A stretch of DNA of 64,000 bases from Pseudomonadota bacterium. Its GTDB lineage: Bacteria > Pseudomonadota > Gammaproteobacteria > Burkholderiales > Burkholderiaceae_C. Each line of letters opens with the position of its first letter. The stretch's first letter is position 1. A model generated the notes under the pieces. The model was not told the origin of the DNA. It searched no databases and was given only the letters and a program-made list of their open reading frames with translations. A program made the translations under genes and the position numbers. Positions 8,083 to 49,175 of the stretch are shown piece by piece. The DNA is taken from positions 30,372 through 94,371 of the forward strand of contig JAZKFQ010000022.1 of assembly GCA_040386375.1 (NCBI GenBank), in the 5' to 3' direction.

Positions 8083-9602
8083 CAGATCATGGCCTCCGCC
8101 TTGCGCTTGGCATGCAGCTTGATCACCTGGCGCTTGAAGTCGGCGCGGAACTCCGGCCGGTCCTTGGGCGTCTCGGTCCAGACCCCCGCCTTGTCGCCCT
8201 GGCCGGCATCGCCGAAGAAGGCGCTCATGGCCTCGAAGCGGTGCTTGTTGGCGATGGCGGCGTTGATCACCGCCGCCAGCGAGCCGGCACCGGCCGGGCC
8301 CATCAGCGGCCGCGCCGAGATCAGGTTGGTGAAATACAGGCCGGGGATGCGCGCTTCCTTGGCGGCCTGCACCACCGGCGTGGTGCCGATGGCCAGGTCG
8401 GGCTGGAATTCATGCATGGCCGCGATGTCCTGTTCCAGGCTGGCCCGGTACTGCACCCGCACACCCTTGGCCTCCAGCCACTGGCGGTCGGCATCGCTCC
8501 AGGGCGTGCGGGGGCAGGCCGTGCCCACGTAGCGCAGGTCGGCGCCACTTTCCACCAGCAGGCGGGCCACGATCAGCTCGCTGCCCTCGTAGCCCGACAG
8601 GGTGATGCGGCCCTTGATCGGTGTCTTGGCCAGCGCCCCGCGGATGGCCGGAAGGATGCGGTTCTTGGCCGCGTCGATCAGGGCCTGGGGCACGTTGGCC
8701 GCGCTGCCGATGGCCTGCAGCCAGGCCTCGGTGCCGTCGTGGCCCACCGGGGCCGAGCCGACGATGGGCCGGCCGGCTGTCTGAAACTCGCGGATGCTGG
8801 CGGTGTAGAACGGGTGGATGGCGGCGACCACGCTGCCGTCCAGCGCGGCATACAGCTCGCGCCACTCCCGGGTGGGCACCACCGGGCCGGCGGCCAGGCC
8901 CATGGGCTCTAGCATCATGCCCAGGATCACCGGGTCGGCCGGGAACATCTCGCCCAGCAGGGTGACCGTGGGCTTGCTGCTGCGGCCGCCCTGCGGCGCC
9001 TGCACCGGGCCGGCTTCCACCTCGGTGCGGGCGTACTTCAGCATGGCGCCGGCCAGCACGTCCTTGGCCTCGGCATGGGTGGGCACGCCGAAGCCCGGCA
9101 CGTCGATGCCGATGATGCGCACGCCGTTGATCTGTTTGGGCAGCAGCTGCAGCGGCACGCCGCTGGCGGTGGGCACGCACAGGTTGATCAGCACGATGCT
9201 GTCGTACTTGTCCGGGTCGGCCAGCTTGAAGGTGGCCTCCCGGATGTCCTCGAACAGCTTGCCGGTGACCAGGCTCTCGCTGTTGAAGGGCACATAACCC
9301 ACGCTGCGGCGCGCGCCGTAGAAATGGCTGGTGAAGGTCAGTCCGTAGACGCAGCAGGCCGAGCCGCTCAACACCGTGGCCGTGCGCTTCATGCGCAGGC
9401 CGACACGCAGTGACCCGAAAGCCGGGCACATGCTCTGCGGCTGGTCGTGCGGGCCCTTGGGATAGTCCTGCGCATACTGCTGCAGCACCTCGCTCTTGCC
9501 GGCGGTTTTCGCGGCGGCCAGCATGGTCTCGGCGCCGGAGTGGCAGCCCAGGCCGTCCTCCTTCAAGGCGGCAGGCACGGCGACGTTCGGTGTGGCGTCC
9601 AT
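8082..9602 (-). CDS. bchY: Chlorophyllide a reductase subunit Y
   Basis: [41 protein letters not shown]. Confidence 0.97.
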
Positions 9603-9609
9603 GGGCAGC

Positions 9610-10638
9610 TCAGATTTCGTCGTAGACGACTTCCAGCGTGGGCTTGACCAGGTCCGCCTTGCCCACCATGTCGAACAAGGTGGCCGGCTCCATCTTGAAG
9701 TCGCGCCCGGTCACCTCGGCCGAGAACAGGCTCAGCAGCTGGTCCTGCGTCTGCGGCTTGGGCCGCACCGGTGGTGCGCTGGCCACGTTGCTGGCCAGTT
9801 CCTCGAACAGCGGCGCCCACTGCGTGCCGGGCCGGCCGATGATCTCGTAGCTGGCGCTCTTGCGGCGGATGTCTTCATTGGCCGGGATGGTGGCCAGCAC
9901 CGGGATGCCGGCGTGCTCGGCAAACACCTTGGCTTCGCCGGTGCCGTCGTCGCGGTTGATCACCATGCCGGCCACACCCACGTTGCCGCCCAGCTTGCGG
10001 AAATACTCCACCGCGCTGCAGACGTTGTTGGCCACGTACAGGCTTTGCAGGTCGTTGCTGGCGACCACGATCACCTTCTGGCACATGTCGCGGGCGATCG
10101 GCAGGCCGAAGCCGCCGCACACCACGTCGCCCAGGAAGTCGAGCAGCACGAAGTCGAAGCCCCAGTCGTGGAAGCCCAGCTTCTCCAGGGTCTCGAAGCC
10201 GTGGATGATGCCGCGCCCGCCGCAGCCGCGGCCCACCTCGGGGCCACCCAGCTCCATGGCGTAGACACCGTCGCGCTTGAAGCAGACGTCGCCGATGGCA
10301 ACGGCTTCACCCGCCAGCTTCTTCTTGCTGCTGGTCTCGATGATGGTGGGGCAGGCCTTGCCGCCGAACAGCAGGCTGGTTGTGTCGCTCTTCGGGTCGC
10401 AGCCGATCAGCAGCACCTTCTTGCCCTGCTGGGCCATCATGTAGCTGAGGTTGGCCAGGGTGAAGCTCTTGCCGATGCCACCCTTGCCGTAGATGGCGAT
10501 GATCTGGGTTTCCTTGGTCACCGGGCCGGTGGGCACGGCATCGGGTTCGATCGCGGCCTCGGCCCGCAGCTGCAGGTCGCGCAGGATCTGGATCGGTGCG
10601 CTGGCGGGACCCTGGGGGCTGTTGATGCTGTGGGTCAT
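9610..10638 (-). CDS. bchX: Chlorophyllide a reductase iron protein X
   Basis: YGKGGIGKS, GCDPKSDT, GGPEVGRGCGGRG, DFLGDVVCGGF. Confidence 0.97.
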   Translation of the reverse strand: MTHSINSPQGPASAPIQILRDLQLRAEAAIEPDAVPTGPVTKETQIIAIYGKGGIGKSFTLANLSYMMAQQGKKVLLIGCDPKSDTTSLLFGGKACPTIIETSSKKKLAGEAVAIGDVCFKRDGVYAMELGGPEVGRGCGGRGIIHGFETLEKLGFHDWGFDFVLLDFLGDVVCGGFGLPIARDMCQKVIVVASNDLQSLYVANNVCSAVEYFRKLGGNVGVAGMVINRDDGTGEAKVFAEHAGIPVLATIPANEDIRRKSASYEIIGRPGTQWAPLFEELASNVASAPPVRPKPQTQDQLLSLFSAEVTGRDFKMEPATLFDMVGKADLVKPTLEVVYDEI

Positions 10639-10639
10639 G

Positions 10640-11602
10640 TCAATGTGTCCAGTCGAGAACCATCTTGAGACAGGCCACATCGCCGAAGGCGGTGCGGTAG
10701 GCGTTGTCGGCCTGTGCGGAGGGCGCGTGGTGGGTGATGAGCCCGTCCAGCGTCAGCAGGCCGTTGGCGATCAGCGCCTGCACGGCCAGCAAGTCGGGCC
10801 GCTGCCATTCGGCGGCAGCACGCAGGCGGGCTTCACGCATGAAGGCCGGTGCGAAATTGAAGTGCAGGGGCTGGCTGTAGAAGCCGGCCAGGATCACTTC
10901 GCCACCAGGCGCCAACCGGGCAATCAGGGTGTCGAGCAAGTCGGAGTCGCCGCTGACATCGCAGATCACGTCGTAGTTGCGGCGGGCGTCGGCGTCGGGG
11001 TGCAGCACGGTGTAGCCCTGGGCGCCGGTGGCGCGCACCGGGTTGGTCTCCCAGACCACGGTGTCGGTGCAGCCGGCGGCCACGTTCAGCCGGGCCAGCA
11101 GCCGGCCCAGCACGCCATGGCCCACGATCAGCTGCGGTGCGCGTGGGTGCTCGATGCGCCCGCCGCCCGACACCGCGTGGTAGGCGGTGGCGGCCAGGGC
11201 CAGCAGCACGGCCTGTTCACCCAGGGCCTCGTCGACCGCGATCACCCGCCGGCCCGGCACCACCAGGCGCGAGGCCGAGCCGCCGAACAGGCCACGCACC
11301 GGCTGCCCGTCCAGCGGGCCGAAGCAGTTGGCACCGGGCACGAAGACCTGCTGGCCGATTTCCAGGCCACTGGCCTCACCGGCCTGCACCACGCGGCCCA
11401 CGGACTCATAACCCGGCACCAGCGGATAGCCCATGCCGGGGAAGCTGGGCATGCGGCCGGTGAACAGCAGCCGTTCGGTGCCGGTGGAGATGCCGCTCCA
11501 GTGCACGTCCACCACCACGTCGTCGGCGGTGGGCTCGGACAGCTGCAGGTCGGCCAGGCCGATGTGCTCGGGGCGGCTCAACAGCACGGCGGTGGTGTTC
11601 AT
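10640..11602 (-). CDS. bchC: Bacteriochlorophyllide a 3-hydroxyethyl dehydrogenase
   Basis: WSGISTGTERL, GYPLVPGYESVG, FMREARL, CLKMVLDW. Confidence 0.96.
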   Translation of the reverse strand: MNTTAVLLSRPEHIGLADLQLSEPTADDVVVDVHWSGISTGTERLLFTGRMPSFPGMGYPLVPGYESVGRVVQAGEASGLEIGQQVFVPGANCFGPLDGQPVRGLFGGSASRLVVPGRRVIAVDEALGEQAVLLALAATAYHAVSGGGRIEHPRAPQLIVGHGVLGRLLARLNVAAGCTDTVVWETNPVRATGAQGYTVLHPDADARRNYDVICDVSGDSDLLDTLIARLAPGGEVILAGFYSQPLHFNFAPAFMREARLRAAAEWQRPDLLAVQALIANGLLTLDGLITHHAPSAQADNAYRTAFGDVACLKMVLDWTH

Positions 11603-11673
11603 GCCGGCGTGGCGCCAAAGGCGCGTTCAGAGGGTTGGTTGATGCAGGTCATGCGGTGGGTGTCTGGCTTGAG

Positions 11674-11717
11674 TGTCACTTTACGCATACTTGATAAAGT
11701 GTCAAGCAAAACTGACA
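11674..11717 (-). promoter_or_regulatory. bchC promoter with two PpsR/CrtJ boxes 8 bp apart
   Basis: TGTCAAGCAAAACTGACA (11700-11717, perfect TGT-N12-ACA) and TGTCACTTTACGCATACT (11674-11691, one mismatch); minus-strand TTGACA-16-TAAAGT overlaps them. Confidence 0.85.
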
Positions 11718-11767
11718 CAGGGTCATCACCAACGCACAACAACGGGGCGCATGGCAGGCGCACGGCA

Positions 11768-12976
11768 TCAGCCCGCCGCCGGCCGTGCCAGCAGCACCTG
11801 GGTCTGCAGCGGCATGGTGGTGTGCAGCAGCCGCGGTGGGCCGAAGCCCGCGGCCTGCAGCAGGGCCCCGAGCCGGGCCACGCTGCGGGGCTGGCCGCTG
11901 CCCATGGCCCAGAGGTAGAGGCCGAAATAGGCATCGCCCATGGCCTGGGCGCCGGCGGTGCCGGCCATGGGCTCGGCCAGCAGCAGCACGCCGTGCGGCG
12001 GCAGTGCTCGGCGCACCGCCTGCAGCAGGGCCAGCACACGGTGGTCGTCGTGGTCGTGCACCACCCGCACCAGGCTGATCACATCGGCGCCGCTGGGCAG
12101 TGCATCGCTGCAGAAGTCGCCGCCCACCGCGGTGGCGCGGCCGCTCAGGCCCAGCGCCGCCAGCCGGCCCTGGGCGCGCCGCGCCACCTCGGGCAGGTCG
12201 AACACCAGCAGCTGCAGATGGGGCCAGCGCTGGCCTGCCGCGGCGGCGAACACACCCTCGCCGCCACCCACGTCCATCAGGCACTGGTGGCGCTGCAGCG
12301 GGTAGGCATCCAGGATCTGGTCGGCCACCAGCGGCTGCGAGGCCGCCATCAGCGCCGAGTAGTCGGCCACCTGGGCCGGCGCCAGGGTGTGCGGCTGCGG
12401 GCTGCGGGCATAGGCCCAGTAGCGCGCCAGGTCCCCCTGGCCGGGGGGGGCGCGCAACAGGGCCAGCGGGTCGGCCAGGTCGGCATACAGCAGCTGGTGG
12501 TGCTGCACCATCGCGGCGATGGCGGCATTGCCCACCATCGGCGCGCCCAGCGGGCCCAGGCGGTAGACGGCCGGCAGCGGGCCATGCTGGCGGCGGGCCA
12601 GCAGGCGCAGGGCCACGGCGGCATCCAGCAGGCGGCGGCAGGCCTCCAGCGGCAGATGCAGGGCGGGGGCCAGGGCCTCGGCGGTGGCAGCGCCCTGGGC
12701 CAGGCGGTCGAACAGCTTGAGCTGCACGCAGGCCAGCAGCACCTGGCTGTAGCTGAAGCCGGCCACCAGGTCGAACAGCTGGCTGGCGCGGCGGCGGGCG
12801 ATGGGCCGGGTGAGCGGGAAGCGCTCGGCCCAGCGGCGGAAGGCCGGGCTGGCCACCCGTTGCGTGGCCCAGTGCTGCAGGGCGTCGCGCCAGCGGGCGA
12901 ACAGGCCGGTGCTGGGCGTGGACTGCAGGGGCAGGGCTTCGGGCCCTGCCTCGGGCACCGATGGCAGCGTGGCCAT
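11768..12976 (-). CDS. crtF: Hydroxyneurosporene O-methyltransferase
   Basis: FQRWA-like FRRWAERFPLTRPIARRRA, LFDLVAGFSYSQVL, SAM motif MDVGGGEG, VRVVHDHDD. Confidence 0.93.
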   Translation of the reverse strand: MATLPSVPEAGPEALPLQSTPSTGLFARWRDALQHWATQRVASPAFRRWAERFPLTRPIARRRASQLFDLVAGFSYSQVLLACVQLKLFDRLAQGAATAEALAPALHLPLEACRRLLDAAVALRLLARRQHGPLPAVYRLGPLGAPMVGNAAIAAMVQHHQLLYADLADPLALLRAPPGQGDLARYWAYARSPQPHTLAPAQVADYSALMAASQPLVADQILDAYPLQRHQCLMDVGGGEGVFAAAAGQRWPHLQLLVFDLPEVARRAQGRLAALGLSGRATAVGGDFCSDALPSGADVISLVRVVHDHDDHRVLALLQAVRRALPPHGVLLLAEPMAGTAGAQAMGDAYFGLYLWAMGSGQPRSVARLGALLQAAGFGPPRLLHTTMPLQTQVLLARPAAG

Positions 12977-12999
12977 GCCGGGTCCGGACGGGCCGGTGC

Positions 13000-13905
13000 T
13001 CAGGCCACGGCCCGCACGTGCGGCATGGCGTGCGCCTGGCTGAGCTGCCGGCACAGCGCGGCCGGCACCAGGCGCTCGGATTCGGCCCGCACCAGGGCGC
13101 GCAGCCGTGCCGCACCGCGGCAATCGGGCACGGCGGCGGCGGCATGGTCCACCAGCTGCTGGAAATGCGCCACCGCGCCCAGCAGGCCATGGGCGGCGGC
13201 CATGCTGGGCCGGCCCAGGGCCTGGTCACGCCCCACCGGCTTGCCCAGCAGCAGCGGGTCGGCCGCCACGTCGCGGATGTCGTCGGCCACCTGGTAGGCC
13301 TCGCCCAGCCATTCACCCAGCGCACGCCAGGGCGCGGGAGGGGAACCGGCGGCCTCGGCGCCGGCCATGGTGGCGGCGGCGAACAGGGCGCCGGTCTTGG
13401 CACGCTGGTAATCACGCAGCGACACCTGCGGTTCACATTCCCAGGCCTGGCCGGCCACGATGCCATGCGGCTGGCCCACGCCGCGTGCCACCAGGCCCAG
13501 CAGGCTGGCCAGGCGCTGCGGCTGGCGGCTGGGCGCGCCTGCCAGCGCCTGGAAGGCCAGCACGATCAGCGCGTCACCGGCCAGCACCGCCAGACGCTCA
13601 CCGTAGGCGCTGTGCACCGAGGGCACGCCGCGGCGCAGCGGTGAATCGTCGAAGCAGGGCAGGTCGTCATGCACCAGGGAGGCACAGTGCAGCAGCTCCA
13701 GCGCGGTGGCGGCGGCATCGGTCAGCACCGGATCGTCGTCGCCGCAGGCCAGGGCCACCGCCACGCACAGGCGCGGCCGCACCCGGGCGCCGCCCGGGAA
13801 CACGGCATGCCGCACCGCCGCCGCCAGGCGTGGCGGGCCACCAGGCAGCTCGGTGCCGGAGAGTGCGGCCGACAGCGCCTGCTCGATGCGTTGCATGGGA
13901 TCCAT
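13000..13905 (-). CDS. crtE: Geranylgeranyl pyrophosphate synthase
   Basis: GGARVRP, ELLHCASLVHDDLPCFDD..LRRG, AGQAWE, KTGALF, AYQVADD. Confidence 0.96.
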   Translation of the reverse strand: MDPMQRIEQALSAALSGTELPGGPPRLAAAVRHAVFPGGARVRPRLCVAVALACGDDDPVLTDAAATALELLHCASLVHDDLPCFDDSPLRRGVPSVHSAYGERLAVLAGDALIVLAFQALAGAPSRQPQRLASLLGLVARGVGQPHGIVAGQAWECEPQVSLRDYQRAKTGALFAAATMAGAEAAGSPPAPWRALGEWLGEAYQVADDIRDVAADPLLLGKPVGRDQALGRPSMAAAHGLLGAVAHFQQLVDHAAAAVPDCRGAARLRALVRAESERLVPAALCRQLSQAHAMPHVRAVA

Positions 13906-13950: not shown

Positions 13951-13994
13951 TGTCACTGCGGCATTACAATATGATGTGTCATGCAGGATAGACA
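13951..13994. promoter_or_regulatory. Two perfect PpsR boxes 8 bp apart in the divergent crtE/crtD promoter
   Basis: TGTCACTGCGGCATTACA (13951-13968) and TGTCATGCAGGATAGACA (13977-13994). Confidence 0.9.
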
Positions 13995-16678: not shown

Positions 16679-17797
16679 TTATTCCGCACCGCCGGCCATG
16701 GCATTGCCGTCGGCCAGGGTCCAGCCACGGTCGCGCCGCTCCAGCCGGTCGAACAGCGCGACCACGCCGGCCAGGCGCCGCGGCGCCGGGGCCACGAAGT
16801 GGCCGGCGTGCAGCGGGCCGGTCACCGCCTCCACCAGGTAGCGTGTGGCCGGCAGCGGTGGCTGCGGGCGCCAGCTGTCGTCGGGCAACAGCGTGAGCAG
16901 GGCGCGCAGCAGGCTGGTGGCCTTGCGCCGGCGGCTGACCACGGCGCGCCGGTCCACCGCATTCAGGCCCTGGCGCTCCACCTCCAGCCCGATCTGGGCA
17001 TACAGGAAGCGCGCCGCGTTGATGCCGGGCCGGCAGCCCAGCGGCAGGGCCGCCACGCCGGCGTCCACCCGGGCATAGAGGGCATCGGCCTCGCGCAGCA
17101 GGCGCTGCACCACCGCACCCAGCGCCGGGCTGTGGCGCGGCGCTGCCAGCCAGGCGTCGGGGCAGATGCCGGCCTCGTGCAGCCACTGGCGCGGCAGGTA
17201 GAGCCGCCCGAGGCGGGCGTCCTCGCCCACGTCGCGGGCGATGTTGGACAGCTGCATCGCCACGCCCAGGTCGCAGGCGCGCGCCAGGCCGGCGGCGCTG
17301 CGTACGCCCATCAGCAGGGCCATCATCGCGCCCACGGCGCCGGCCACGCGTGCGGCATAGGCCTGCAGCTCGTGCAGGCTGTCGTAGCGGCGGCCGGCGG
17401 CATCCCATTCGAAGCCCTCGATCAGCGCCTGCGGCAGCTCGGCCGGGATGTCGAAGCGCCGCACCACCACGGCCAGGGCGCGGTCGGCCGCCTGCGGGCC
17501 CGGGCGGCCGGCGTAGATCTCGGCCAGGCGCTGGCGCAGCCGGCCCACGGCCTGGCCGGCAGCGGCATCACCGGCCGCCCGCGGTGCGCCGCCACCGGTC
17601 TGGCCGTCGACCTCGTCGTCGGCCAGGCGGCAGAAGGCATACAGCGCGCAGGCCGGGTCGCGCACCGCGCCGGGCAGCAGCTTGCTGGCGGCCAGGAAGG
17701 TGCGCGAGCCATTGGCCAGCAACTGCTTGCAGGCCGCCAGGTCGCGGGCTTCGTCGGCCGCTTCAGGCGTGTGCGTTGGCTGTGACTTGATCACCAT
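16679..17797 (-). CDS. crtB: Phytoene synthase
   Basis: GSRTFLAAS, LYAFCRLADDEVD, YAARVAGAVG, LGVAMQLSNIARDVGEDARLGRLYLP. Confidence 0.96.
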   Translation of the reverse strand: MVIKSQPTHTPEAADEARDLAACKQLLANGSRTFLAASKLLPGAVRDPACALYAFCRLADDEVDGQTGGGAPRAAGDAAAGQAVGRLRQRLAEIYAGRPGPQAADRALAVVVRRFDIPAELPQALIEGFEWDAAGRRYDSLHELQAYAARVAGAVGAMMALLMGVRSAAGLARACDLGVAMQLSNIARDVGEDARLGRLYLPRQWLHEAGICPDAWLAAPRHSPALGAVVQRLLREADALYARVDAGVAALPLGCRPGINAARFLYAQIGLEVERQGLNAVDRRAVVSRRRKATSLLRALLTLLPDDSWRPQPPLPATRYLVEAVTGPLHAGHFVAPAPRRLAGVVALFDRLERRDRGWTLADGNAMAGGAE

Positions 17798-19337
17798 GGG
17801 GAACCACCGTGTCGAGGATGCGGGCGGAGGACAGCACGCCGGGCAGGCCGGCACCGGGATGGGTGCCGGCACCCACCAGGTAGAGCCGGCCGATGTCTTC
17901 GCTCTGGTTGTGCGGGCGGAACCAGGCGCTCTGCGTGAGCACCGGCTCCAGGCCGAAGGCCGCGCCGCGGAAGGAGGAGAGCCGGTCCTGGAAATCCAGC
18001 GGCGTGATCATGTGCGAGCTGACCACCTCGCTGGACAGGCCCGGCAGCAAGGTGCTCTCCAGCCGCCGCATGATCTTCTGGCGGTAGGGCTCGGCCGCGG
18101 TGGTCCAGTCGGCATCCCCCTGCAGGTGCGGCACCGGCGAGAGCACGTAGAACGCGTCGCAGCCGGGTGGCGCCAGCGATGGGTCGGTGGCGGTGGGGCG
18201 GTGCAGGTAGAGGCTGAAGTCCTCGGCCAGGTGCTTGCGGTCGAAGATGTCGGTCAGCAGCCCGCGGTAGCGCGGGCCCAGGGCGATGGTGTGGTGGGCC
18301 ACTTCCGGGTACTGGCGCTTGGTGCCGAAGTACCAGACGAACAGGCTCATCGAGTACCGGGCGCGCTCGATCTTGGCATCGGTCCAGCGCTTGCGGTGTT
18401 CGGGTGCCACCAGCTTGCGGTAGGTGGTGGCGGAATCCGCATTGGAGACCACCGCGTCCGCCGCCAGGCGCTCGCCGTTGGCCAGCAACACGCCGCAGGC
18501 CGCGCCATCCTTCACCAGGATCTGCGCCACGCTGGTGTTGCAGCGCACCACGTTGCCCTGGCCTTCGATCAAGCCGACCAGGCCGGTCACCAGCGCACCG
18601 GTGCCGCCGATGGCGAAGTGCACGCCGAAACGCCGCTCCAGGAAGGCGATCAGGCAGTACACCGAGGTGGTGGCAAACGGATTGCCGCCCACCAGCAGCG
18701 ACTGGAAGGTCAGCACCACACGCAGGCGCGGGTCCTGCACATGCTTGCAGGCCAGCTGCCACACGGTGCGCCAGGCTTCCAGCTTCAGCATCGCCGGCAG
18801 CACCCGGGCCATGTCGGTCCAGTGGCTGAAGGGCTTGTCGCCCAGCTGCTCGAAGCCCACCTTGTAGATCGCGGCGCTGGCCGCGAGGAAGTTCTCGTAG
18901 CCCTGCACGTCACCCGGCGCGAAGCGGCCGATCTCGGCGCGCATCTGGGCCGGGTCACCGGTGTAGTTGAACTCCTCGCCGCTGTCGAAGCGCACCCGGT
19001 AGAAGGGGCTCACCGGCACGATGGTCACGTCGTCGGCCAGGCGCTTGCCGCACAGGGCCCACAGCTCTTCCAGCAGGAAGGGCGCGGTGATGACGGTGGG
19101 GCCGGCGTCGAAGGTGAAGCCGTCCTGCTTGTAGACATAGGCGCGGCCGCCGGGGGCGTCCAGCTGCTCCAGCACGGTGACGCGCCAGCCGCGGGCGCCC
19201 AGCCGCACCGCCGCGGCCAGGCCGCCGAAACCGCTGCCGATCACCACCGCATGCGGTGGTGCCTTGCCGCGGGCAGTGCCGGCGGCAACGGGCGGGATCT
19301 GGGGGGCCGCCTGCAGGGGCAAGGTATGTGTCAACAT
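17763..19337 (-). CDS. crtI: Phytoene desaturase
   Basis: VIGSGFGGLAAAVRL, FTFDAGPTVIT, LVGAGTHPGAGLPGVLSSA. Confidence 0.97.
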   Translation of the reverse strand: MLTHTLPLQAAPQIPPVAAGTARGKAPPHAVVIGSGFGGLAAAVRLGARGWRVTVLEQLDAPGGRAYVYKQDGFTFDAGPTVITAPFLLEELWALCGKRLADDVTIVPVSPFYRVRFDSGEEFNYTGDPAQMRAEIGRFAPGDVQGYENFLAASAAIYKVGFEQLGDKPFSHWTDMARVLPAMLKLEAWRTVWQLACKHVQDPRLRVVLTFQSLLVGGNPFATTSVYCLIAFLERRFGVHFAIGGTGALVTGLVGLIEGQGNVVRCNTSVAQILVKDGAACGVLLANGERLAADAVVSNADSATTYRKLVAPEHRKRWTDAKIERARYSMSLFVWYFGTKRQYPEVAHHTIALGPRYRGLLTDIFDRKHLAEDFSLYLHRPTATDPSLAPPGCDAFYVLSPVPHLQGDADWTTAAEPYRQKIMRRLESTLLPGLSSEVVSSHMITPLDFQDRLSSFRGAAFGLEPVLTQSAWFRPHNQSEDIGRLYLVGAGTHPGAGLPGVLSSARILDTVVPHGDQVTANAHA

Positions 19338-19372
19338 TTGTAGATAGTATTTGTGTCCACTTTGATTGACAA
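19329..19372 (-). promoter_or_regulatory. crtI sigma70-type promoter overlapped by PpsR boxes
   Basis: Minus strand TTGTCA-17-TACTAT; perfect box TGTCCACTTTGATTGACA (19354-19371) and one-mismatch box TGTCAACATTTGTAGATA (19329-19346). Confidence 0.8.
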
Positions 19373-19505
19373 TAGGGTTGCCCTCCTTCCCTGCTGGCCG
19401 GTCTGCGCGGTGGTGATGCGGTAAAGTCCATGCTCCGTGCCGTGCCTTTGGTGCTGCCAGTCAAAGGAGTGTGGTGGCAGCGAACCAGAGAGAAGGGAGA
19501 CTGGC

Positions 19506-20966
19506 ATGAGTCCAAGCCCTCCTGAGATGGCTGATCTGGGCGCATTGGCCGGGCTGGCGCCCGAGCTGGCGAACACATTCGCCTCACTCGCCAGCGACAT
19601 CGCGCTGGTGATCGACGCTGCCGGCGTGATCCGCAACGTGGCCCTGGGCGACAACGCCGTCGGCCACCGTGCCGACCAGTGGGTGGGCAGTGCCTTCATC
19701 GACACCGTCACCCAGGACACCCGCGGCAAGATCGCATCGATGCTGCAGGAAGTGCAGCGCACCGGTGTGTCGCGCCGGCGTGAGGTCAACCTGCCCGGGC
19801 CGGGCGACACCAGCATCCCGGTGGTGTTTGCCGCCATCCGCCTGGGCGTCGACGGCCCGGTGCTGGCCGTGGGGCGGGATCTGCGCGCCATCGCCGCGAT
19901 CCAGCAGCGCTTTCTCGACGCCCAGCAGGCGCTGGAGCGCGACTACTGGCAGCAGCGCCAGACCGAATCCCGCTACCGCCTGCTGTTCCAGGTGGCCACC
20001 GATGCGGTGCTGGTGGTCGATGCCGCCACGCTCACCATCATCGAGGCCAACCGCGCCGCGGCCGAGCTGTTCGGCCATGCGCCGGCGCAGATGGCCGGCC
20101 AGCCGGCGGTGGTGGGCATCGACCCGGCCTCGCGCCCGGCGGTCGAGGAGTTGCTCAGCGCCACCCGCGCAAGCGGCAAGCCGGCCGAGATCCGCGCCCG
20201 CCTGGGCGGGCCCGCCGGCCTGCCGGGCCTGGCCCTGGTGGATGTGTCGGCGACGCCTTTCCGGGCCACGGCCGACGGCGCCAGCCAGCTGCTGCTGCTG
20301 GTGCGGGTGCGCAGCACCGAGCGGCCGGGCAGCGATGCGGCCCGCCGCCTGGCTGAATTCGTCGAGCAGACACCCGATGCGGTGGTCATCACCGACAGCA
20401 ACGGCCGGCTGCAGATCGCCAACCCGGCCTTCCTGGCGCTGTGCCCGCCCGGTGTGCAGGAGACGCACTTCAAGGGCCGCACCCTGGGCGATCTGCTGGG
20501 CGACCCCGGGCACCGCCTGACGGCCCTGGTGGCCGAGGTGCGCCGCAACGGCATCGCCAACCAGGTTCGGGCCCCCATCGGCCCGCTGCGCTCACCCTGG
20601 GCCGGCGCCCGGGCGCAGGAAGTGGAAGTCTCGGCCGCCCTGCTGGCCGAGGGTGACCAGGAGTGCATCGGCTTCATCCTGCGCCGCCACACGCCACGGC
20701 AGGAGCAGCTGCTGCAGCCGGTGGACGGCCTGGCCGCGGCGATCGAGAACCTGGCGGCCCAGTTGGGCCGTGTCTCGCTGCCCGAGCTGATGCAGGAGGC
20801 CACCCACCTGGCCGAGTACCACCTGATCCGCAGCGCGCTCGAGCGTGCTGGCGGCCATGCGGCGACGGCGGCCAACTGGCTGGACATCACCCCCGAGAGC
20901 CTGAGCCTGCGCCTGGCGCGCCATGGCCTGGTGGCCGATGGCGGCACCCCGCCGCTGCTGAACTGA
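19506..20966 (+). CDS. ppsR: PpsR-family PAS-domain regulator (paralog with degenerate C-terminal HTH)
   Basis: SDIALVID N-domain, Q-helix GRDLRAIAAIQQRFLDAQQALERDYW...SRYRLLF, two PAS domains, LGRVSL.EL..E.T region; SD GGGAG upstream. Confidence 0.88.
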   Translation: MSPSPPEMADLGALAGLAPELANTFASLASDIALVIDAAGVIRNVALGDNAVGHRADQWVGSAFIDTVTQDTRGKIASMLQEVQRTGVSRRREVNLPGPGDTSIPVVFAAIRLGVDGPVLAVGRDLRAIAAIQQRFLDAQQALERDYWQQRQTESRYRLLFQVATDAVLVVDAATLTIIEANRAAAELFGHAPAQMAGQPAVVGIDPASRPAVEELLSATRASGKPAEIRARLGGPAGLPGLALVDVSATPFRATADGASQLLLLVRVRSTERPGSDAARRLAEFVEQTPDAVVITDSNGRLQIANPAFLALCPPGVQETHFKGRTLGDLLGDPGHRLTALVAEVRRNGIANQVRAPIGPLRSPWAGARAQEVEVSAALLAEGDQECIGFILRRHTPRQEQLLQPVDGLAAAIENLAAQLGRVSLPELMQEATHLAEYHLIRSALERAGGHAATAANWLDITPESLSLRLARHGLVADGGTPPLLN

Positions 20967-21041
20967 CACCAGCGCGCACGCCAGCGCAAGCCCGGGATTG
21001 CCGCTGCTGCGGCGGCCCCGTGCTGCGGTAACCTGTCCACC

Positions 21042-23240
21042 GTGGACCACAGCCCCGCCTTCGGTCAGGCCGATCTCAGCAATTGCGAGCGTGAGCTCAT
21101 CCACCTCGCCGGGTCGATCCAGCCGCATGGTGTGCTGCTGGTGCTGCGTGAGCGCGATGGCCTGGTGGTGCAGGTCTCGTCCAACTGCGCCGCGCTGCTG
21201 GGCCTGCCCGCCGAGCGGCTGCTGATGCGCCCGCTGTCCCTGCTGGGCGGCGACCTGGAGGCGCGGGTGCAGCTGCTGGCGGCGGCGCCCGACCTGGCCG
21301 ATCCGCGCCCGCTGCCGGCCCACACCACCGTGGCCGGTGTGCCGCGGGAATGGTCGGCGGCGCTGCACCGGGTGGCCGCCCAGGGCGTGCTGGTGCTGGA
21401 ACTGGAGGCCTGCGACGGTGGCGAGGCCGGTGTGCTGCTGCCGGGCCAGCCGGCGCTGATGCAGCGGCTGTCGGATGCCGTGCAGCGCTTCGGCCAGGCC
21501 GCCAGCATCGGTGTGCTGTGCGACGGCATCGCCCGCTGCGTGCGCGACCTCACCGGCCACGACCGCGTGATGGTCTACAAGTTCGACCCCGACGGCCACG
21601 GCAAGATCATCGCCGAGGCGCGCGACCCGCGGCTGGACACCCTGCTGGGCCACCAGTACCCCGCCACCGACATCCCGCAGCGTGCGCGCCAGCTCTACCT
21701 GGCCAACCGGGTGCGGGTGCTGGTGGACGTGCACTACCAGCCGGTGCCGCTGCAGCCCGTGCTGCTGCCGGCCGACCCGGCGGGCGGCCGGCCCGAGCCG
21801 GTGGATCTGGACATGTCGATGTGCGCGCTGCGCAGCATGTCGCCGCTGCACCTGCAGTACCTGAAGAACATGGGCGTCACCGCCACCCTGGTGGTGTCGC
21901 TGGTGCGCGAGGGCCGGCTGTGGGGCCTGATCGCGGCCCACCATGACAGCCCGCGCGCCATCAGCCCCGGCCTGCGTGCCGCCTGCGATCTGCTGGCCGA
22001 GGTGGCGGCCACCCGCATCGCGGCGATCGAGAACTATGCCCACGCCCAGGTCGCCATCCTGGTGCGGCGGCTGGAGCAGCGCCTGGTGGAGGCCACTTCC
22101 ACCGAGGGCGACTGGCGCCTGGCGCTGTTCCGCAACCCGCGCACCCTGCTGCAGCCGCTGGAGGCCACCGGCGCGGCGCTGTTCCACGCCGGTGAATGGC
22201 TCACCTCCGGCGAGGTGCCGTCCACCCCCGAGCTGCGCCAGCTGCTGCACTGGGTGGATGCGCACTACACCGACGCGCCGTTCGCCACTGCCGCGGTGGG
22301 CCGGGCCGACCCCGCGCTGGAGTCGCTGACGCCCATGGCCAGCGGCGTGCTGGCGGTCAAGCTGTCCAGCCAGCGGCCCGATTACCTGATGTGGTTCCGC
22401 AAGGAGCAGCTGCACACCGTCACCTGGGCCGGCGACCCGGCCAAGCCCACGGTCAACGATGACCCGCTGACCTTGTCGCCGCGCCGCTCCTTCGCCGCCT
22501 GGAGCGAGATCGTGCGTGGCACGGCACTGCCCTGGAGCGCCGCCGAGCTGGCGCTGGGCCGTGCCGTGGGCGCCTCGCTGGTGGACATCATCGTGCAGGT
22601 CAACGCGGTGCGCCTGCTGGTGGCCGAGCACCAGCTGGCCGGCGTGCGGGCCACGGTGCAGAGCTCGCACGAGCCGGTGGCCATCGCCGACGGCCAGGGG
22701 GTGATGCTGTTCAGCAACCCGGCCTTCGCCAGCCTGCTGGGGCGCGCCCCCGGCAGCCTGGGCACGCTGGACGCGCTGGCCACCGTCTTCGACGAGCCGG
22801 CCCAGCTGCAGGCGGGCCTGGACTCGGTGCGCCGCCTGCACCAGGCCTGGCGCGGTGAGCTGGGCCTGCTGCGCAGCGGCGACGAAGCCGAGGCCCTGCC
22901 GGTGGGGCTGCGCATCGAGCTGGTGCCCGGGCGCGACGGCCAGGTGCTGGGCTACATCCTGATGCTCAGCGACCTGAGCGACAGCCGCCGCGCCGCCGCG
23001 GCGCGCCGCCATCTGGAAGACGCGCTGCAGCAGGCCGGCCGCGGTGGCCGCACCGACCGGCCAGGCAGCCCGGCCGACCAGGTGATCAGCGCCATCCTCA
23101 CCAATGCCAGCCTGGCCGCGATGGACATCGCCGACAGCAGCGGCGGCCCGGGCGTGGCACCGCTGCTGGAAGAGGTGGAGGCCTCGGCCCGGCGCGCGGC
23201 GGTGCTGTATGGCCGCATCCGCCAGCACTTCAGCAACTGA
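21042..23240 (+). CDS. bphP: Bacteriophytochrome, PAS-GAF-PHY-PAS-HOS type, no histidine kinase
   Basis: DLSNCERE (biliverdin Cys), SIQPHG, GHDRVMVY, TDIP, MSPLHLQYLKNMGV, PRRSF, C-terminal ILTNASLAAMDI; no H-box or ATPase boxes. Confidence 0.95.
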   Translation: MDHSPAFGQADLSNCERELIHLAGSIQPHGVLLVLRERDGLVVQVSSNCAALLGLPAERLLMRPLSLLGGDLEARVQLLAAAPDLADPRPLPAHTTVAGVPREWSAALHRVAAQGVLVLELEACDGGEAGVLLPGQPALMQRLSDAVQRFGQAASIGVLCDGIARCVRDLTGHDRVMVYKFDPDGHGKIIAEARDPRLDTLLGHQYPATDIPQRARQLYLANRVRVLVDVHYQPVPLQPVLLPADPAGGRPEPVDLDMSMCALRSMSPLHLQYLKNMGVTATLVVSLVREGRLWGLIAAHHDSPRAISPGLRAACDLLAEVAATRIAAIENYAHAQVAILVRRLEQRLVEATSTEGDWRLALFRNPRTLLQPLEATGAALFHAGEWLTSGEVPSTPELRQLLHWVDAHYTDAPFATAAVGRADPALESLTPMASGVLAVKLSSQRPDYLMWFRKEQLHTVTWAGDPAKPTVNDDPLTLSPRRSFAAWSEIVRGTALPWSAAELALGRAVGASLVDIIVQVNAVRLLVAEHQLAGVRATVQSSHEPVAIADGQGVMLFSNPAFASLLGRAPGSLGTLDALATVFDEPAQLQAGLDSVRRLHQAWRGELGLLRSGDEAEALPVGLRIELVPGRDGQVLGYILMLSDLSDSRRAAAARRHLEDALQQAGRGGRTDRPGSPADQVISAILTNASLAAMDIADSSGGPGVAPLLEEVEASARRAAVLYGRIRQHFSN

Positions 23241-23307: not shown

Positions 23308-23955
23308 TCAGGCGGCGTCGGTGCAGGGGCGCGCCAGTTCCTCGAACAGCCGCGCATGCTGGGCGAAGGCCCATTGCGCCTCTTCCACCAGGGCCTGGGC
23401 GCCGGCCTCGTCCAGCGGCAGGGCGTCCAGGGCCTGGCGCAGGCCCTGGCTGAGCTGGCGCACCAGCGGCGGCGGGCCGAAATCGAAGAACCGGGTGCCG
23501 GCGTCGCCGGCCAGCTGGTAGGCCTGCTGCGCCACCCGGCGCAGTGCCTGGCCGCCGGCCAGGTCACCCAGGTAGCGCACATAGGCATGGGCGACCAGCA
23601 GCGGCGGCTGCTGCTGCGCCAGTTCCTGCAGGCGCTGGGCATAGGCGCTGGCCGCCGCGGTCACCGGCAAGGCGGTGGCCCACAGCGGCCCGTGCAGCAC
23701 GCCCAGATCGGCCTGCAGGGCCTGGCAGCGTGCCAGCGGGCCCAGCTGCAGCGGCGCCAGCAGGGGGTGGCCGGCATGGCTGTGCAGGCCGGCTTCCAGC
23801 GCCTGGTAGATGCTGAACAGGTTGCGCTGCAGGCGCTGGAAGCCGGCGGCCGGCAGCTGGCCGCGCAGCAGGGCCGGCATGATGCCGGCGCGTTCGGTGG
23901 TGGTGTGCAGGGCCCAGGTGCCCTCGCGCAGGCGCTGGGCCAGACCCATGCTCAT
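23308..23955 (-). CDS. bphO: Biliverdin-producing heme oxygenase
   Basis: LREGT..LH...E, AHAYVRYLGDLAGGQ, RFFDF; next to the phytochrome. Confidence 0.93.
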   Translation of the reverse strand: MSMGLAQRLREGTWALHTTTERAGIMPALLRGQLPAAGFQRLQRNLFSIYQALEAGLHSHAGHPLLAPLQLGPLARCQALQADLGVLHGPLWATALPVTAAASAYAQRLQELAQQQPPLLVAHAYVRYLGDLAGGQALRRVAQQAYQLAGDAGTRFFDFGPPPLVRQLSQGLRQALDALPLDEAGAQALVEEAQWAFAQHARLFEELARPCTDAA

Positions 23956-24017
23956 GTGTGTGCTCGTCGTGGCCGGGGACAACTGCCGGCTCTGCGAACG
24001 ATGATAGCGAGCCGCCC

Positions 24018-28313: not shown

Positions 28314-29708
28314 TCAGTGGAAGCTGCGGCTGCCGTCGTTGCCATGGGCGCCATCGTCGGCGGCGATGCGGCGGTGCACCCGCTGCAGCACCAGCCAGGC
28401 GCCCAGCCCCAGCACCGGCACGGCGGCGCCGGTGACCAGGTCGGGCGACAGCGGCAGGCCGGCGGCCTTCAGCGCCTTGGCGCCGTAGCCCACCAGGCCG
28501 GCCAGGTAGTAGACGATGGCGGCCACCGACAGGCCCTCCACCGTCTGCTGCAGCCGCAGCTGCAGCTTGGCGCGGCGGGCGGTGGCGGCCAGCAGGGCCT
28601 GGTTCTGGCGCTCGCGGGCGATGTCGACCCGGGTGGACAGCAGGTTGCTGGCCTGCGCCACCCGCTCGCTCAGGTCGTGCAGGCGCCCGCTGGCGGTGGC
28701 GCAGGTGGCCATGGCCGGGTTCAGGCGCCGGGTCATGAACTCGTCGATGGTCTGCAGGCCCTGGATGCGCTGTTCACGCAGCTCGCCGATGCGGGTGGCC
28801 ACCAGGGCGTGGTAGGCCCGGCTGGCGCCGAAGCGTGCCTGGCTGGCGGCCAAGGCGCTCTCGACCTCGGCGGCCAGGGCCATCAGCTGCTGCAGCAGGG
28901 CTTCGTCCTGGGTGGCGGCGGCCTGGCCACCGGCCTGGGCCGCGGCGCCACCGGCGATGCGCGCGGTCAGCTCGGCCAGGGTGCGCTCGATGGCCTGCAG
29001 GCGCGGCCACAGGCCACGCGCCACCGGCAGGGCCAGCAAGGCCATCATGCGGTAGGCCTCGATCTCGAACAGCCGCTGCAGCATGCGGCCGGCCTGGCGC
29101 GCCGTCATGTCCCGGTCCAGCAGCAGGAAGCGGGCGAAGCCGTCGGGGTGGATCACGAAATCGGTGAAGGCCATGCCGGCGCCGTCACCGATGCCCGCAC
29201 CCACCACCACGTTGCTGCCGAAATGGGCGGCCAGCTGCTCCGCCGAGGGCGCGCCGGACGGGCCTGCCGCCGCATCCACCGCCGCATCCACCAGCAGCGC
29301 CGCCGCGGCCAGCTTGGCATGGGCGGCAAACACCGTGTGCCCCGGCACGCCGGCCAGCCAGCCGGGGGGCAGCATGGCCGCCACCGGCTCGGCAAACGGC
29401 TGGCTGCTGAGGCCGGCGGTGAAGAAGGTGTAGCTGGAGAACTCGCCGTGGCGCTCCCACTTGAAGCGCAGGGCGCCCAGGTTGGCTGCCCACTGCGTGC
29501 CACCGGCCGGCGGCGGCGCCACGCCGGTCACGCGGCACAGCGCCTCGATGTGGGCCAGCTCGGCGGCACGCGCCTCGGCGTCGATGCGCACCGCCACGTA
29601 GCTGGCGCGGCTGGGCGCGCTCAAGGGCTCCGGCGGCCGGGCATGCACCTCGGCGGCCAGGCTGGCGCGGTCGGGGTGGTCGGGGGGCAGCAGGGGCGTG
29701 GCGGGCAT
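28314..29708 (-). CDS. DUF3422 family protein
   Basis: HPDR..LAAEVHARP, KWERHGEFSSYTF, RLFEIEAYRMMALL, RLQQTVEGLSVAAIVYY. Confidence 0.85.
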   Translation of the reverse strand: MPATPLLPPDHPDRASLAAEVHARPPEPLSAPSRASYVAVRIDAEARAAELAHIEALCRVTGVAPPPAGGTQWAANLGALRFKWERHGEFSSYTFFTAGLSSQPFAEPVAAMLPPGWLAGVPGHTVFAAHAKLAAAALLVDAAVDAAAGPSGAPSAEQLAAHFGSNVVVGAGIGDGAGMAFTDFVIHPDGFARFLLLDRDMTARQAGRMLQRLFEIEAYRMMALLALPVARGLWPRLQAIERTLAELTARIAGGAAAQAGGQAAATQDEALLQQLMALAAEVESALAASQARFGASRAYHALVATRIGELREQRIQGLQTIDEFMTRRLNPAMATCATASGRLHDLSERVAQASNLLSTRVDIARERQNQALLAATARRAKLQLRLQQTVEGLSVAAIVYYLAGLVGYGAKALKAAGLPLSPDLVTGAAVPVLGLGAWLVLQRVHRRIAADDGAHGNDGSRSFH

Positions 29709-29802
29709 CGGGGTTGGACGGTGTCTGGCACGCCGGACCGGGATGTGGAAGCTTAAGCCACCGCCGGCCCGGCTTGCCTCGCCGGTTACCCCGAGTGTCG
29801 TG

Positions 29803-31047
<1,245 letters not shown>

Positions 31048-32079: not shown

Positions 32080-32136
32080 TCATGCCAAGCGGGCTCCGGT
32101 CCGCGCCTCTGACCCCTTGCCGGAAGACCACAGGCC

Positions 32137-33432
32137 ATGTCGCAGACGGTTGTCATCGAAGACTTGCAAGTCGGGATGTTCGTGCATCTCGACCTGGGCT
32201 GGTGGGCGCACCCGTTTGCGCTGTCGAGCTTTCTCATCACCAGCCCGGAGCAGATCGTCACCATCCGCGGCCTGGGCCTGAAGACACTGCGCTGGAGCCC
32301 GGAGAAGAGCCGCCTGGCCGATGCGCCGCAGGCCGCGCCTGCCACCGGTGCCGTGGCCGGGCCCGACCCGGTGCAGCCCGAGGTGGCCACCGGCGTGGTC
32401 GCCACGCTGCCCCTGGTACCCGCGCCGCAGGATCCATTGTCGGCCCAGCATGCCGCCCGTGTGCTGTGCGAGCAGCAGTACGGCGAGGCCGGCCGCGCCT
32501 GGCACGAGGCCCAGCGCCTGGTGCCGGTGGCGCCCGAGCAGGCGCGCACCGTCACCGAGGGCCTGACCCGCTCGCTGCTGGACAAGCTGATGGTGGACCG
32601 CGAGATGTGCGTGCGCGTGATCAGCGACGTGGGCGGCGACCGCGTCTCCGGCCATGCGCTGAACGTGGCCGTGATCGCCCTGCTGATGGGACGGGTGTTC
32701 GGCTTCGGCGAGGCCGACATGCTGGACCTGGGCGTGGGCGCCCTGCTGCACGACGTGGGCAAGCTGGAGCTGCCCGAGCGTGTGCGCCATGCCGACCTGC
32801 CGCTGAACCCGCGCGACCTGCAGGCCTACCGCGAACATGTGAACCTGGGCGTGGGCCTGGGCCAGCGCATGGGGCTGAGCGAGGGCGCGCTGAGCGTGCT
32901 GGCCCAGCACCACGAGATGGCCGACGGCAGCGGCTTCCCGGCCCGCCTGAACCTGGACCGCATGGCCATCGGCGCGCGCATCGTCTCGCTGGTCAACCGC
33001 TACGACAAGCTCTGCAACCCGGCCCAGCTGGCCAGTGCATTGACGCCGCACGAGGCCTTGTCGCTGATCTTTGCGCAGAGCCGCACCAAGTTCGACGCCA
33101 CCATGCTGAACGCCTTCATCCGCATGATGGGCGTGTACCCGCCCGGCTCGCTGGTGCAGCTGACCGACGACCGCTATGCCACCGTGGTCAGCTGCAATTC
33201 CAGCCGGCCGCTCAAGCCCCGGGTGCTGGTGTGCGACACCAAGGTGCCGGTGGACCAGGCGCTGCTGCTGAACCTGGACGGCCAGATCGACCTGGGCATC
33301 CGCCGCAGCCTCAAGGCCACCCAGCTGCCGGCCGCCGCACGCGACTACCTGTCGCCGCGCCAGCGCATGGTGTATTTCTTCGAACCCGTGCCGGCCGATG
33401 TGCTGGGCACCGTCGAGGCGCTGGCCGCGTGA
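32137..33432 (+). CDS. DUF3391/HD-GYP domain protein
   Basis: LQVGMFVHLDLGW..HPF N-terminus, LLHDVGK, HHEMADGSGFP. Confidence 0.88.
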   Translation: MSQTVVIEDLQVGMFVHLDLGWWAHPFALSSFLITSPEQIVTIRGLGLKTLRWSPEKSRLADAPQAAPATGAVAGPDPVQPEVATGVVATLPLVPAPQDPLSAQHAARVLCEQQYGEAGRAWHEAQRLVPVAPEQARTVTEGLTRSLLDKLMVDREMCVRVISDVGGDRVSGHALNVAVIALLMGRVFGFGEADMLDLGVGALLHDVGKLELPERVRHADLPLNPRDLQAYREHVNLGVGLGQRMGLSEGALSVLAQHHEMADGSGFPARLNLDRMAIGARIVSLVNRYDKLCNPAQLASALTPHEALSLIFAQSRTKFDATMLNAFIRMMGVYPPGSLVQLTDDRYATVVSCNSSRPLKPRVLVCDTKVPVDQALLLNLDGQIDLGIRRSLKATQLPAAARDYLSPRQRMVYFFEPVPADVLGTVEALAA

Positions 33433-33487
33433 ACCCGCCGGGCCATCCCCTGGGCCAACACCGCCGGGCGCAGCCCGAAGGGTGCCC

Positions 33488-47912: not shown

Positions 47913-49056
<1,144 letters not shown>

Positions 49057-49062
49057 CGTATC

Positions 49063-49175
49063 GGGTGGCCGCTGCGAGGTGACCGCTCCCTGCTTTTCCT
49101 CCCTGAGCAGGTGCCTTGGCGTGATGACAGCGGCAAGGCTTCCCGCCCCAGTCTCCGTGACTGGGGTTCTTTTTT
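49063..49175 (+). ncRNA. Candidate ~110-nt trans-acting small RNA
   Basis: Own promoter, CU-rich CTTTTCCTCCCTG stretch, internal stem GCCTTG/CAAGGC, ends in an intrinsic terminator; no ORF inside. Confidence 0.6.
49145..49175 (+). terminator. Rho-independent terminator
   Basis: CCCCAGTC-TCCGT-GACTGGGG then TTCTTTTTT. Confidence 0.85.

Follow-up and report, generated by a model that had tools for sequence, protein, structure and literature searches.

The window analysed here is a stretch of 64,000 nucleotides from a Pseudomonadota bacterium of the Burkholderiaceae_C (contig JAZKFQ010000022.1 of assembly GCA_040386375.1, positions 30,372 to 94,371 of the forward strand), and half of a photosynthesis gene cluster lies in it; the source is a betaproteobacterium resembling Aquabacterium or Pseudaquabacterium, from a watershed metagenome. 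In purple bacteria the photosystem genes are under the master repressor PpsR. The window carries, directly upstream of a phytochrome gene that is followed by a heme oxygenase gene, a ppsR paralog with a divergent helix-turn-helix (HTH) domain. We assign its product to what we call class B, a widespread and undescribed PpsR subfamily that probably passes a light signal by protein contacts. The features that bear directly on this proposal are listed here, with coordinates of the window.

19506–20966, plus strand: ppsR paralog ("class B" PpsR), 486 amino acids, with N-PAS, Q-linker, PAS1, PAS2 and a divergent Fis-type HTH
20823–20825, plus strand: codon for L440, the site of the canonical redox Cys (ERLCI replaced by EYHLI)
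20859–20930, plus strand: HTH proper, residues 452–475, with a helix at 452–458, the turn at 459–462 (D460) and the recognition helix at 463–472 (PESLSLRLAR); limits from the AlphaFold2 model
20949–20963, plus strand: C-terminal tail PPLLN-COOH, a mark of class B
21042–23240, plus strand: bphP, RpBphP1-type bacteriophytochrome, PAS2-GAF-PHY-PAS9 and a C-terminal tail of about 80 amino acids; biliverdin Cys in LSNCERE
23308–23982, minus strand: heme oxygenase gene hmuO/bphO (Pfam PF01126, E 1e-50); start uncertain, between 23946 and 23982

The ATG at 19506, the start given in the initial annotation, is the real one because a related locus (L001) has an in-frame TAG five codons upstream, and the C-terminal strings quoted in that annotation are present in the translation (...LAEYHLIRSALERAGGHAATAANWLDITPESLSLRLARHGLVADGGTPPLLN*). 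With 305 bits against TIGR02040, the NCBIfam model for PpsR-CrtJ (cut-off 275.4), the protein belongs to the PpsR/CrtJ family. An alignment with R. sphaeroides PpsR (4HH2, E 1e-32) covers the N-domain, Q-linker, PAS1 and PAS2 at 25–30% identity and with a shared fold, bearing out the earlier view that these domains are retained. The AlphaFold2 model has a mean predicted local distance difference test score (pLDDT) of 89.7 and forms the HTH from helices 425–447, 452–458 and 463–472; in a Foldseek search with this model the crystal structures of R. sphaeroides PpsR rank first. The domain order is therefore that of the canonical PpsR/CrtJ proteins of R. sphaeroides, R. capsulatus and Rubrivivax gelatinosus. 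Unlike these proteins, the window's PpsR lacks the redox Cys in its C-terminal HTH (...AANWLDITPESLSLRLARHGL), its recognition-helix region reads LDITPESLSLRLAR instead of the canonical LGLSRQSLY(V)KLRR, and the Pfam scan, which also found the PAS matches, gave HTH_8 at 24.9 bits, marginally above the cut-off of 22 and to be compared with about 41 bits for canonical proteins. No second ppsR was found in the 64-kb window; a weak tblastn match of the HTH at 1616–1723 is spurious and lies inside the pucC-like gene.

The bphP gene follows ppsR in the same orientation after a gap of 75 bp, the layout known from BphP1-PpsR2 pairs. Its product is a phytochrome, as had been noted, and is of the BphP1 type: the best solved relative is RpBphP1 (4GW9, E 1e-168), aligned over residues 3–651 and hence through PAS9, and Pfam found PAS_2, GAF, PHY and PAS domains and no HisKA, HATPase or other kinase domain. 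The HOS domain is assigned by its position and by the length of the tail of about 80 amino acids only, the 4GW9 construct being without HOS. The linkage recurs: bphP stands directly after the class B ppsR in all 17 class B loci examined (the window, L001–L010, L011, which is a fragment, L013 from Ideonella sp. A 288, L014, L020, L022 and L023). Heme oxygenase is adjacent in every class B locus annotated that far (the window, L013, L014, L020, L022 and L023), and also at L012, a locus with a canonical-HTH PpsR. In the window a tblastx search of the bphP-bchO gap, high-GC DNA, was uninformative, and Pfam identified the enzyme there. Judged by its family and position, the heme oxygenase between bphP and bchO completes a conserved cassette of ppsR-bphP and divergent hmuO, in which it would supply biliverdin.

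In several respects the cassette is like the RpBphP1-RpPpsR2 and BrBphP-PpsR2/PpsR1 systems of R. palustris and Bradyrhizobium ORS278: ppsR lies directly upstream of a type-3 phytochrome with PAS9 and without histidine kinase, heme oxygenase is adjacent, and PpsR operators occur at crt and bch promoters. Unlike in the alphaproteobacterial systems, it sits between crtI and bchO, in the cluster half without ppaA.

Two classes of PpsR

An exhaustive search of representatives at 50% identity separated PpsR proteins into two groups, for which we coin the names class A (canonical) and class B. Class A carries a near-invariant recognition helix, LGLSRQSLYVKLRR[YH]G, and class B is without it. The initial annotation had listed G>D, R>P, Q>E and Y>S in the HTH, and the loss of the Cys, as departures of this one protein. 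All are present; among the C-termini of its 120 closest homologs (52–100% identical), however, P463, E464, S/A467 and L440 at the Cys site are the norm, and only G460D is unusual, being seen again only in P0012 and P0015. The nearest of these homologs follow the rule AA[DE]WLGITPESLxLRLxRHGL...PPLLN and the distant ones LLGIxx[DE]NLWLRLRHHGL...LLN.

Column profiles from a 500-sequence alignment (304 class A, 196 class B) confirm that the altered sites are canonically invariant, as had been proposed. R463, Q464 and Y467 are found in 100% of class A and R471 in 95%; the window has P, E, S and A at these positions, and class B has mostly P, E/D, A/S/W and, at 471, a variable residue including A, M or V. 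P463 occupies the place of the first-turn basic residue of HTH_8-type recognition helices, which we take, by a manual alignment, to be the DNA-contacting residue equivalent to Fis R85 and NtrC R456. A redox-active Cys precedes the HTH in CrtJ (C420) and PpsR (C424). Of the 304 class A sequences, 155 show C and 131 show F in this column; of the 196 in class B, 172 show L. The altered redox region noted initially is thus real, but the loss of the Cys is not new: the BphP-partnered RpPpsR2 and BrPpsR2 are likewise without it, and the residue is not universal (PMC4452267, PMC6899989).

A neighbour-joining tree of 177 representatives, calculated from residues 1–420 and hence without the HTH, places all class A proteins apart from all class B proteins. 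Class B thus represents an ancient lineage of PpsR paralogs in its own right rather than a recently damaged copy. The two classes also distribute their conservation differently, as seen in mean pairwise identities among representatives thinned to below 72% identity. The recognition helix is 79% identical in class A, where it ranks as the most conserved segment, and 33% identical in class B, where it is the least conserved; the HTH turn reaches 93% and 44%, respectively. The N-domain has 39% identity in class A versus 55% in class B, and the Q-linker 58% versus 63%, the highest value of any class B region. Residues 452–475 carry a net charge of +4.0 in class A, which drops to +0.8 in class B and to 0 in the window's protein, and HTH_8 scores run from 40.5 to 41.8 bits in class A and from 14.5 to 29.7 bits in class B. 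The intact amphipathic pattern of the recognition helix is missing in 38 of 99 class B representatives, several of which end early.

Class B has a mark of its own at the C-terminus. Its proteins end in N in 135 of 196 cases, usually after two hydrophobic residues, compared with 7 of 304 in class A, and within the window's near clade, the 37 proteins at 70% identity or more, the PPLLN tail is 88% identical. The tail could serve in partner binding or as a degradation tag.

Coexistence with a canonical PpsR

The initial annotation had predicted that a PpsR of the DNA-binding type exists elsewhere in the genome, and such canonical proteins were indeed found alongside class B. The clearest case is L022 (GCA_006365095.1, a 313-kb contig, 8001–13646), which has both genes on one contig in the order bchG / ppsR(B)-bphP / hmuO-ppsR(A)-ppaA / bchF. 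Here the class A copy has a canonical HTH (IEQLCIEAALKLTNDNRASAAEMLGLSRQSLYVKLRRFGM), and the class B copy ends in LLGISEQRIGGATGSDPSTPETF*; its recognition helix is gone, yet it still lies upstream of bphP. A second case is the cultured Pseudaquabacterium pictum W35, whose locus is represented with 100% of the sampled words in an isolate run (X24, 6.3 Mb of contigs). The run also contains a class A ppsR, which lies apart from the class B locus on a contig of 14 kb and has an HTH reconstructed as EKRCIEAALELTRDNRASAAEILGLSRQSLYVKLRRYGL; the reconstruction applied the listed base differences to L016, giving ...DLIEKRCIEAALELTRDNRASAAEILGLSRQSLYVKLRRYGLGD.

As regards the organism of the window itself, the four metagenomes in which the window occurs (X1–X4) each contain a class A contig with the same reconstructed HTH peptide as P. 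pictum. The depth of this contig follows that of the window contigs, at 62.6, 12.2, 6.45 and 5.81 in X1, X2, X3 and X4 compared with about 50–71, 10–16, 5–10 and 4–8.5, respectively. The identical length of L021 (P0454) and the X1 class A contig, both 2923 bp, is a coincidence, as the gene position differs. The second, ppaA-linked PpsR is thus on the same contig in L022 and in the isolate run for P. pictum, and it is associated with the window's organism by co-abundance only, in the four metagenomes; in our view a canonical ppaA-linked PpsR is very probably present in this organism too. The context ppaA-ppsR-bchG is also that of the class A genes in L018, L019 and L024.

The contrast expected between phytochrome-adjacent and ppaA-adjacent HTHs was found directly in L022 and by inference in P. 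pictum and in the window's organism, but it did not extend to L012 (10001–14381). There a PpsR with a canonical HTH (P0132), 47% identical to the window's, lies beside bphP and hmuO; the gene after ppaA is bchG instead of a ppsR, and a second ppsR was not found within 10 kb. Relatives of P0132 in a homolog search include PpsRs of Gemmatimonadota. A canonical HTH in a locus without a second ppsR is what one would expect, because the HTH would be free to drift only if a second reader exists. On these comparisons, drift in the HTH seems to be confined to cases in which another DNA reader was available.

Operators and the surrounding cluster

The initial annotation had also pointed to TGT-N12-ACA boxes in promoters of the window, and perfect boxes are present at 11700, 13951, 13977, 19354 and 29796, all in promoter regions of the photosynthesis cluster. 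The whole window has nine matches to this pattern, compared with 6.7 expected by chance, and five of the nine fall within about 460 bp of promoter DNA, where about 0.05 would be expected. Three promoters, those of bchC, crtE/crtD and crtI/ppsR, have tandem boxes 7–8 bp apart, and the fourth, of DUF3422-bchI, has a single box.

11674–11717, unstranded: tandem boxes upstream of bchC, 8 bp apart; the box at 11674 has one mismatch, that at 11700 is perfect
13951–13994, unstranded: tandem perfect boxes in the crtE/crtD divergent promoter, 8 bp apart
19329–19371, unstranded: tandem PpsR-type operator in the crtI/ppsR divergent promoter, TGTCAACATTTGTAGATA-N7-TGTCCACTTTGATTGACA; the box at 19329 is TGT-N12-ATA, that at 19354 is perfect
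29796–29813, unstranded: single perfect box upstream of the DUF3422-bchI-bchD operon, overlapping the last codons of the pobA open reading frame
17763–19337, minus strand: crtI (phytoene desaturase), divergent from ppsR (TIGR02734, E 5e-188)

The crtI/ppsR pair is kept base for base in all 12 class B loci that have a crtI/ppsR junction, even where protein identity is as low as 55%. A classical operator thus also stands in front of the class B ppsR-bphP operon. The true start of crtI is probably further downstream than the listed ATG (19337), because that codon lies inside box 1 and the family match begins at residue 30. Between the operator and the ppsR start, the leader at 19372–19505 contains conserved blocks (ATAGGGTTGCC, GCGGTAAAGTCCA and AAGGAGTNTGGTGGCAGCGAACC) that are also present in L001–L010 and L014; an in-frame stop in L001 makes them non-coding, and they could represent promoter, 5' untranslated region or another binding site.

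These operators bear on one explanation of the divergent helix, namely that it has been re-tuned to a new, lineage-specific DNA sequence and that class B controls other promoters. The recognition helix is conserved inside sub-lineages and differs between them, much as such a change of specificity would predict. Near the cassette, however, no alternative conserved palindrome was found, and the only conserved upstream operator is the classical one; a further perfect match at 21034–21051 (TGTCCACCGTGGACCACA), overlapping the start of bphP, is conserved in no related locus and is probably due to chance. The near-zero net charge, the acidic residue at position 2 of the helix and the loss of the helix in many members also speak against any reading of DNA, and we consider a new specificity improbable.

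The remainder of the cluster half is arranged as follows.

Left part: pucC-like (minus), pufC-M-L (minus), bchZ-Y-X-C (minus), crtF (minus), crtE (minus), crtD and crtC (plus), crtB and crtI (minus)
Right part: ppsR and bphP (plus), heme oxygenase (minus), bchO (plus), bchD, bchI and DUF3422 (minus), then pobA and unrelated genes

Of these, crtC is assigned by position only and gave no family match. At the end of the cluster (28314–31047) DUF3422/bchI abuts pobA. In Roseateles depolymerans the half with bchP-bchG-ppsR-ppaA/bchF...puhA precedes DUF3422; this half is absent from the window, and the cluster has therefore been split or rearranged. The supplementary table for that species lists a single PpsR, located after bchF and a hypothetical protein taken as ppaA, no phytochrome cassette, and a PAS-only "ORF350" after pufC.

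Two observations concern the flanking DNA. A match to the anti-hemB small RNA (Rfam RF02837, 64 bits, E 1e-12) at 49087–49174 on the plus strand lies just upstream of, and antisense to the 5' end of, hemB (47913–49049, minus strand), a gene of the tetrapyrrole pathway. Beside the cluster, at 32113–35608 on the plus strand, are a response regulator with a cyclic di-GMP phosphodiesterase-like domain and a PAS-GGDEF-EAL protein, which might be linked to light or redox signalling.

A phytochrome-linked PpsR with a proposed action by protein contacts

What does class B do if its recognition helix is not that of an operator reader? Several observations weigh against the view that it has ceased to read DNA. 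Within the near clade the recognition helix is 85% identical, above the PAS domains, and the ratio of nonsynonymous to synonymous substitution rates (dN/dS) is 0.26 for the recognition helix and 0.36 for the whole gene, with the lowest value, 0.18, in the Q-linker; the HTH, at 0.26–0.32, is not decaying in this clade. The C-terminal fold is predicted at pLDDT 90–95, and HTH_8 still scores above its cut-off. S465, R469, R472 and H473 are conserved, residues that we take, by a manual alignment with Fis, to match T87, K91, K94 and Y95, and contacts from them to the DNA backbone are conceivable. In Bradyrhizobium and R. palustris, the phytochrome-partnered PpsR2 proteins are reportedly repressors that bind DNA. 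Finally, the class A gene is tied to the window's genome by co-abundance and by the nearest isolate, and not by one assembled molecule.

The near-clade identity and dN/dS values argue that the C-terminal domain is still functional in the window's clade, although, on comparison of the sequences, it appears to be constrained unlike the reader of an invariant operator. A decaying, functionless duplicate might come to mind in view of the weak HTH score and the truncated C-termini of some relatives. The reading frame is intact in every locus, however, purifying selection acts on the gene overall and most strongly on the Q-linker, this ancient subfamily is diverse and keeps its synteny, and its C-terminal tail shows conservation too. 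Selection and synteny together exclude a dead gene for all practical purposes, and we give this explanation hardly any weight.

The main rival explanation is an ordinary PpsR2-type repressor that still binds TGT-N12-ACA, perhaps more weakly or only cooperatively, with BphP as a far-red antirepressor as in R. palustris. The confidently predicted HTH fold with its HTH_8 score above threshold, the purifying selection on the HTH, the four conserved residues named above and the conserved operator directly upstream of the class B gene all fit such a protein. So does the gene order in L022, which resembles what we take to be the Bradyrhizobium arrangement, ppsR2-bphP...ppsR1-aerR-bchF. Against it, all four exposed helix residues that are invariant in class A are replaced, one by an acidic residue, and the net charge of the region is 0. 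The helix is, moreover, the least conserved part of class B and has been lost repeatedly, which is hard to square with an invariant operator, and the operators themselves are explained by the coexisting class A protein. We regard an ordinary repressor as possible but rather unlikely.

A further precedent had seemed to speak against a "dead" HTH. R. gelatinosus PpsR, the sole PpsR of its genome, binds TGT-N12-ACA (PMC4452267), and it would have provided a DNA-binding example had it been of the class B type. The Rubrivivax-type sequence recovered with the expression primer of that study reads IEQLCIEAALELTRDNRASAAEMLGLSRQSLYVKLRRYGL and is class A; no conclusion on class B can be drawn from its DNA binding, and we rejected it as a precedent. 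Its relatives have the context bchF / ppaA-ppsR, and the homolog search named only Rubrivivax.

The comparison with the alphaproteobacterial PpsR2 proteins is closer. As in Bradyrhizobium and R. palustris, a second PpsR linked to ppaA/aerR-bchF is seen in L022, and on gene order the layout can be regarded as homologous to the two-PpsR systems of these bacteria. Compared by description, with the alphaproteobacterial sequences lying outside our set, class B is unlike these PpsR2 proteins in that it has lost the SRQSLY..R residues of the recognition helix, and the conserved C-terminal ..LLN tail and a clade of its own are features proper to it. The Arg that RpPpsR2 has at the Cys site was found in none of the 500 aligned sequences, which suggests that the alphaproteobacterial PpsR2 proteins lie outside the sampled class B. 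A plasmid search returned canonical alpha- and gammaproteobacterial ppsR only and no alphaproteobacterial PpsR2. The BphP1-PpsR2 interaction, Cys-less PpsR2 proteins and genomes with two PpsRs are already known in Alphaproteobacteria. Full-text literature searches brought up no account of a PpsR linked to a phytochrome in Burkholderiales, nor of a PpsR subfamily without the recognition-helix residues.

We propose the following model, in which class B is the phytochrome-partnered member of a two-PpsR system, does not read TGT-N12-ACA on its own and acts by protein contacts; for this model as a whole we consider the chances evenly balanced. Class A, with its redox Cys and invariant LGLSRQSLYVKLRR helix, would read the operators at bchC, crtD/E, crtI/ppsR and the bchI operon. 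Class B retains the parts of PpsR that serve oligomerisation and partner binding (N-domain, Q-linker, PAS1 and PAS2) together with a folded C-terminal three-helix domain, and it has lost the surface residues defining the DNA-reading face of class A. Heme oxygenase would supply biliverdin, and the BphP1-type phytochrome would bind class B in far-red light, as RpBphP1 binds PpsR2. Capture by BphP would change the amount of free class B available for mixed oligomers with, or for other action on, the canonical repressor; alternatively, class B may modulate that repressor through its conserved C-terminal domain. Light quality would in this way affect the expression of pigment and photosystem genes, and the PpsR operator shared with crtI in front of the class B ppsR-bphP operon would close a feedback loop. 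Paralogy, gene linkage, coexistence with class A and the way in which the HTH has diverged and eroded are shown by the sequences; the loss of specific DNA binding, the binding to BphP and the hetero-oligomerisation with class A are inferred, and a decoy or adaptor mechanism is plausible.

How might the contacts be made? The BphP1-PpsR2 interaction is said, in the initial annotation, to run through the Q-PAS1 region, and the Q-linker, with the highest identity (63%) of any class B region and the lowest dN/dS (0.18), is compatible with binding of BphP in its Pr state at this place. The body made up of N-domain, Q-linker and PAS1 is retained in class B and even more tightly constrained there; it is the region of PpsR oligomerisation and AppA binding (PMC3949515). 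For RpBphP1, which binds PpsR2, a published model has the HTH of PpsR2 form a four-helix bundle with the HOS domain of the phytochrome (PMC6899989). Such a bundle would explain why the fold of the class B HTH is kept, and why its residues co-vary within lineages, without any reading of DNA. Class B resembles dominant-negative, HTH-defective paralogs as a general concept, as it keeps the oligomerisation domains, has an altered DNA-reading face and coexists with an intact paralog. Unlike in such paralogs, its C-terminal domain is conserved in the near clade and not deleted; this domain therefore probably has a role of its own, for which the contact with HOS is a candidate.

Under the proposed mechanism, class B would join AppA, which regulates PpsR by Q-linker binding (PMC3949515), and PpaA/AerR, of which AerR acts on CrtJ (PMC5362033), as a light-dependent modulator of DNA-bound PpsR through protein contacts. 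It would be unlike AppA, a BLUF/SCHIC protein, and the B12-binding PpaA/AerR in being itself a PpsR paralog and in receiving its light input second-hand from the phytochrome. In the fullest form of this idea, class B would have been converted to a light-signal adaptor that reads no DNA and relays the far-red state of BphP to the ppaA-linked PpsR via mixed oligomers or via the C-terminal domain and the ..LLN tail, making a switch of three or four proteins (BphP, class B, class A and PpaA) that is widespread in Burkholderiales phototrophs and their relatives. We advance this fuller version tentatively and with less than even confidence.

The proposal is of interest for the regulation of photosynthesis genes and for near-infrared optogenetics alike, the BphP1-PpsR2 pair being a widely used near-infrared optogenetic tool. 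Should the model hold, class B proteins would serve this purpose as new partners for BphP that conserve the Q-linker and do not bind DNA. Pseudaquabacterium pictum W35, a cultured isolate, appears to carry both paralogs, which makes experiments feasible. If true, the model would be a natural example of a repressor paralog recruited to regulate its own family, and it would provide a concrete and testable account of how freshwater aerobic phototrophs may join far-red signals with redox and B12 signals.

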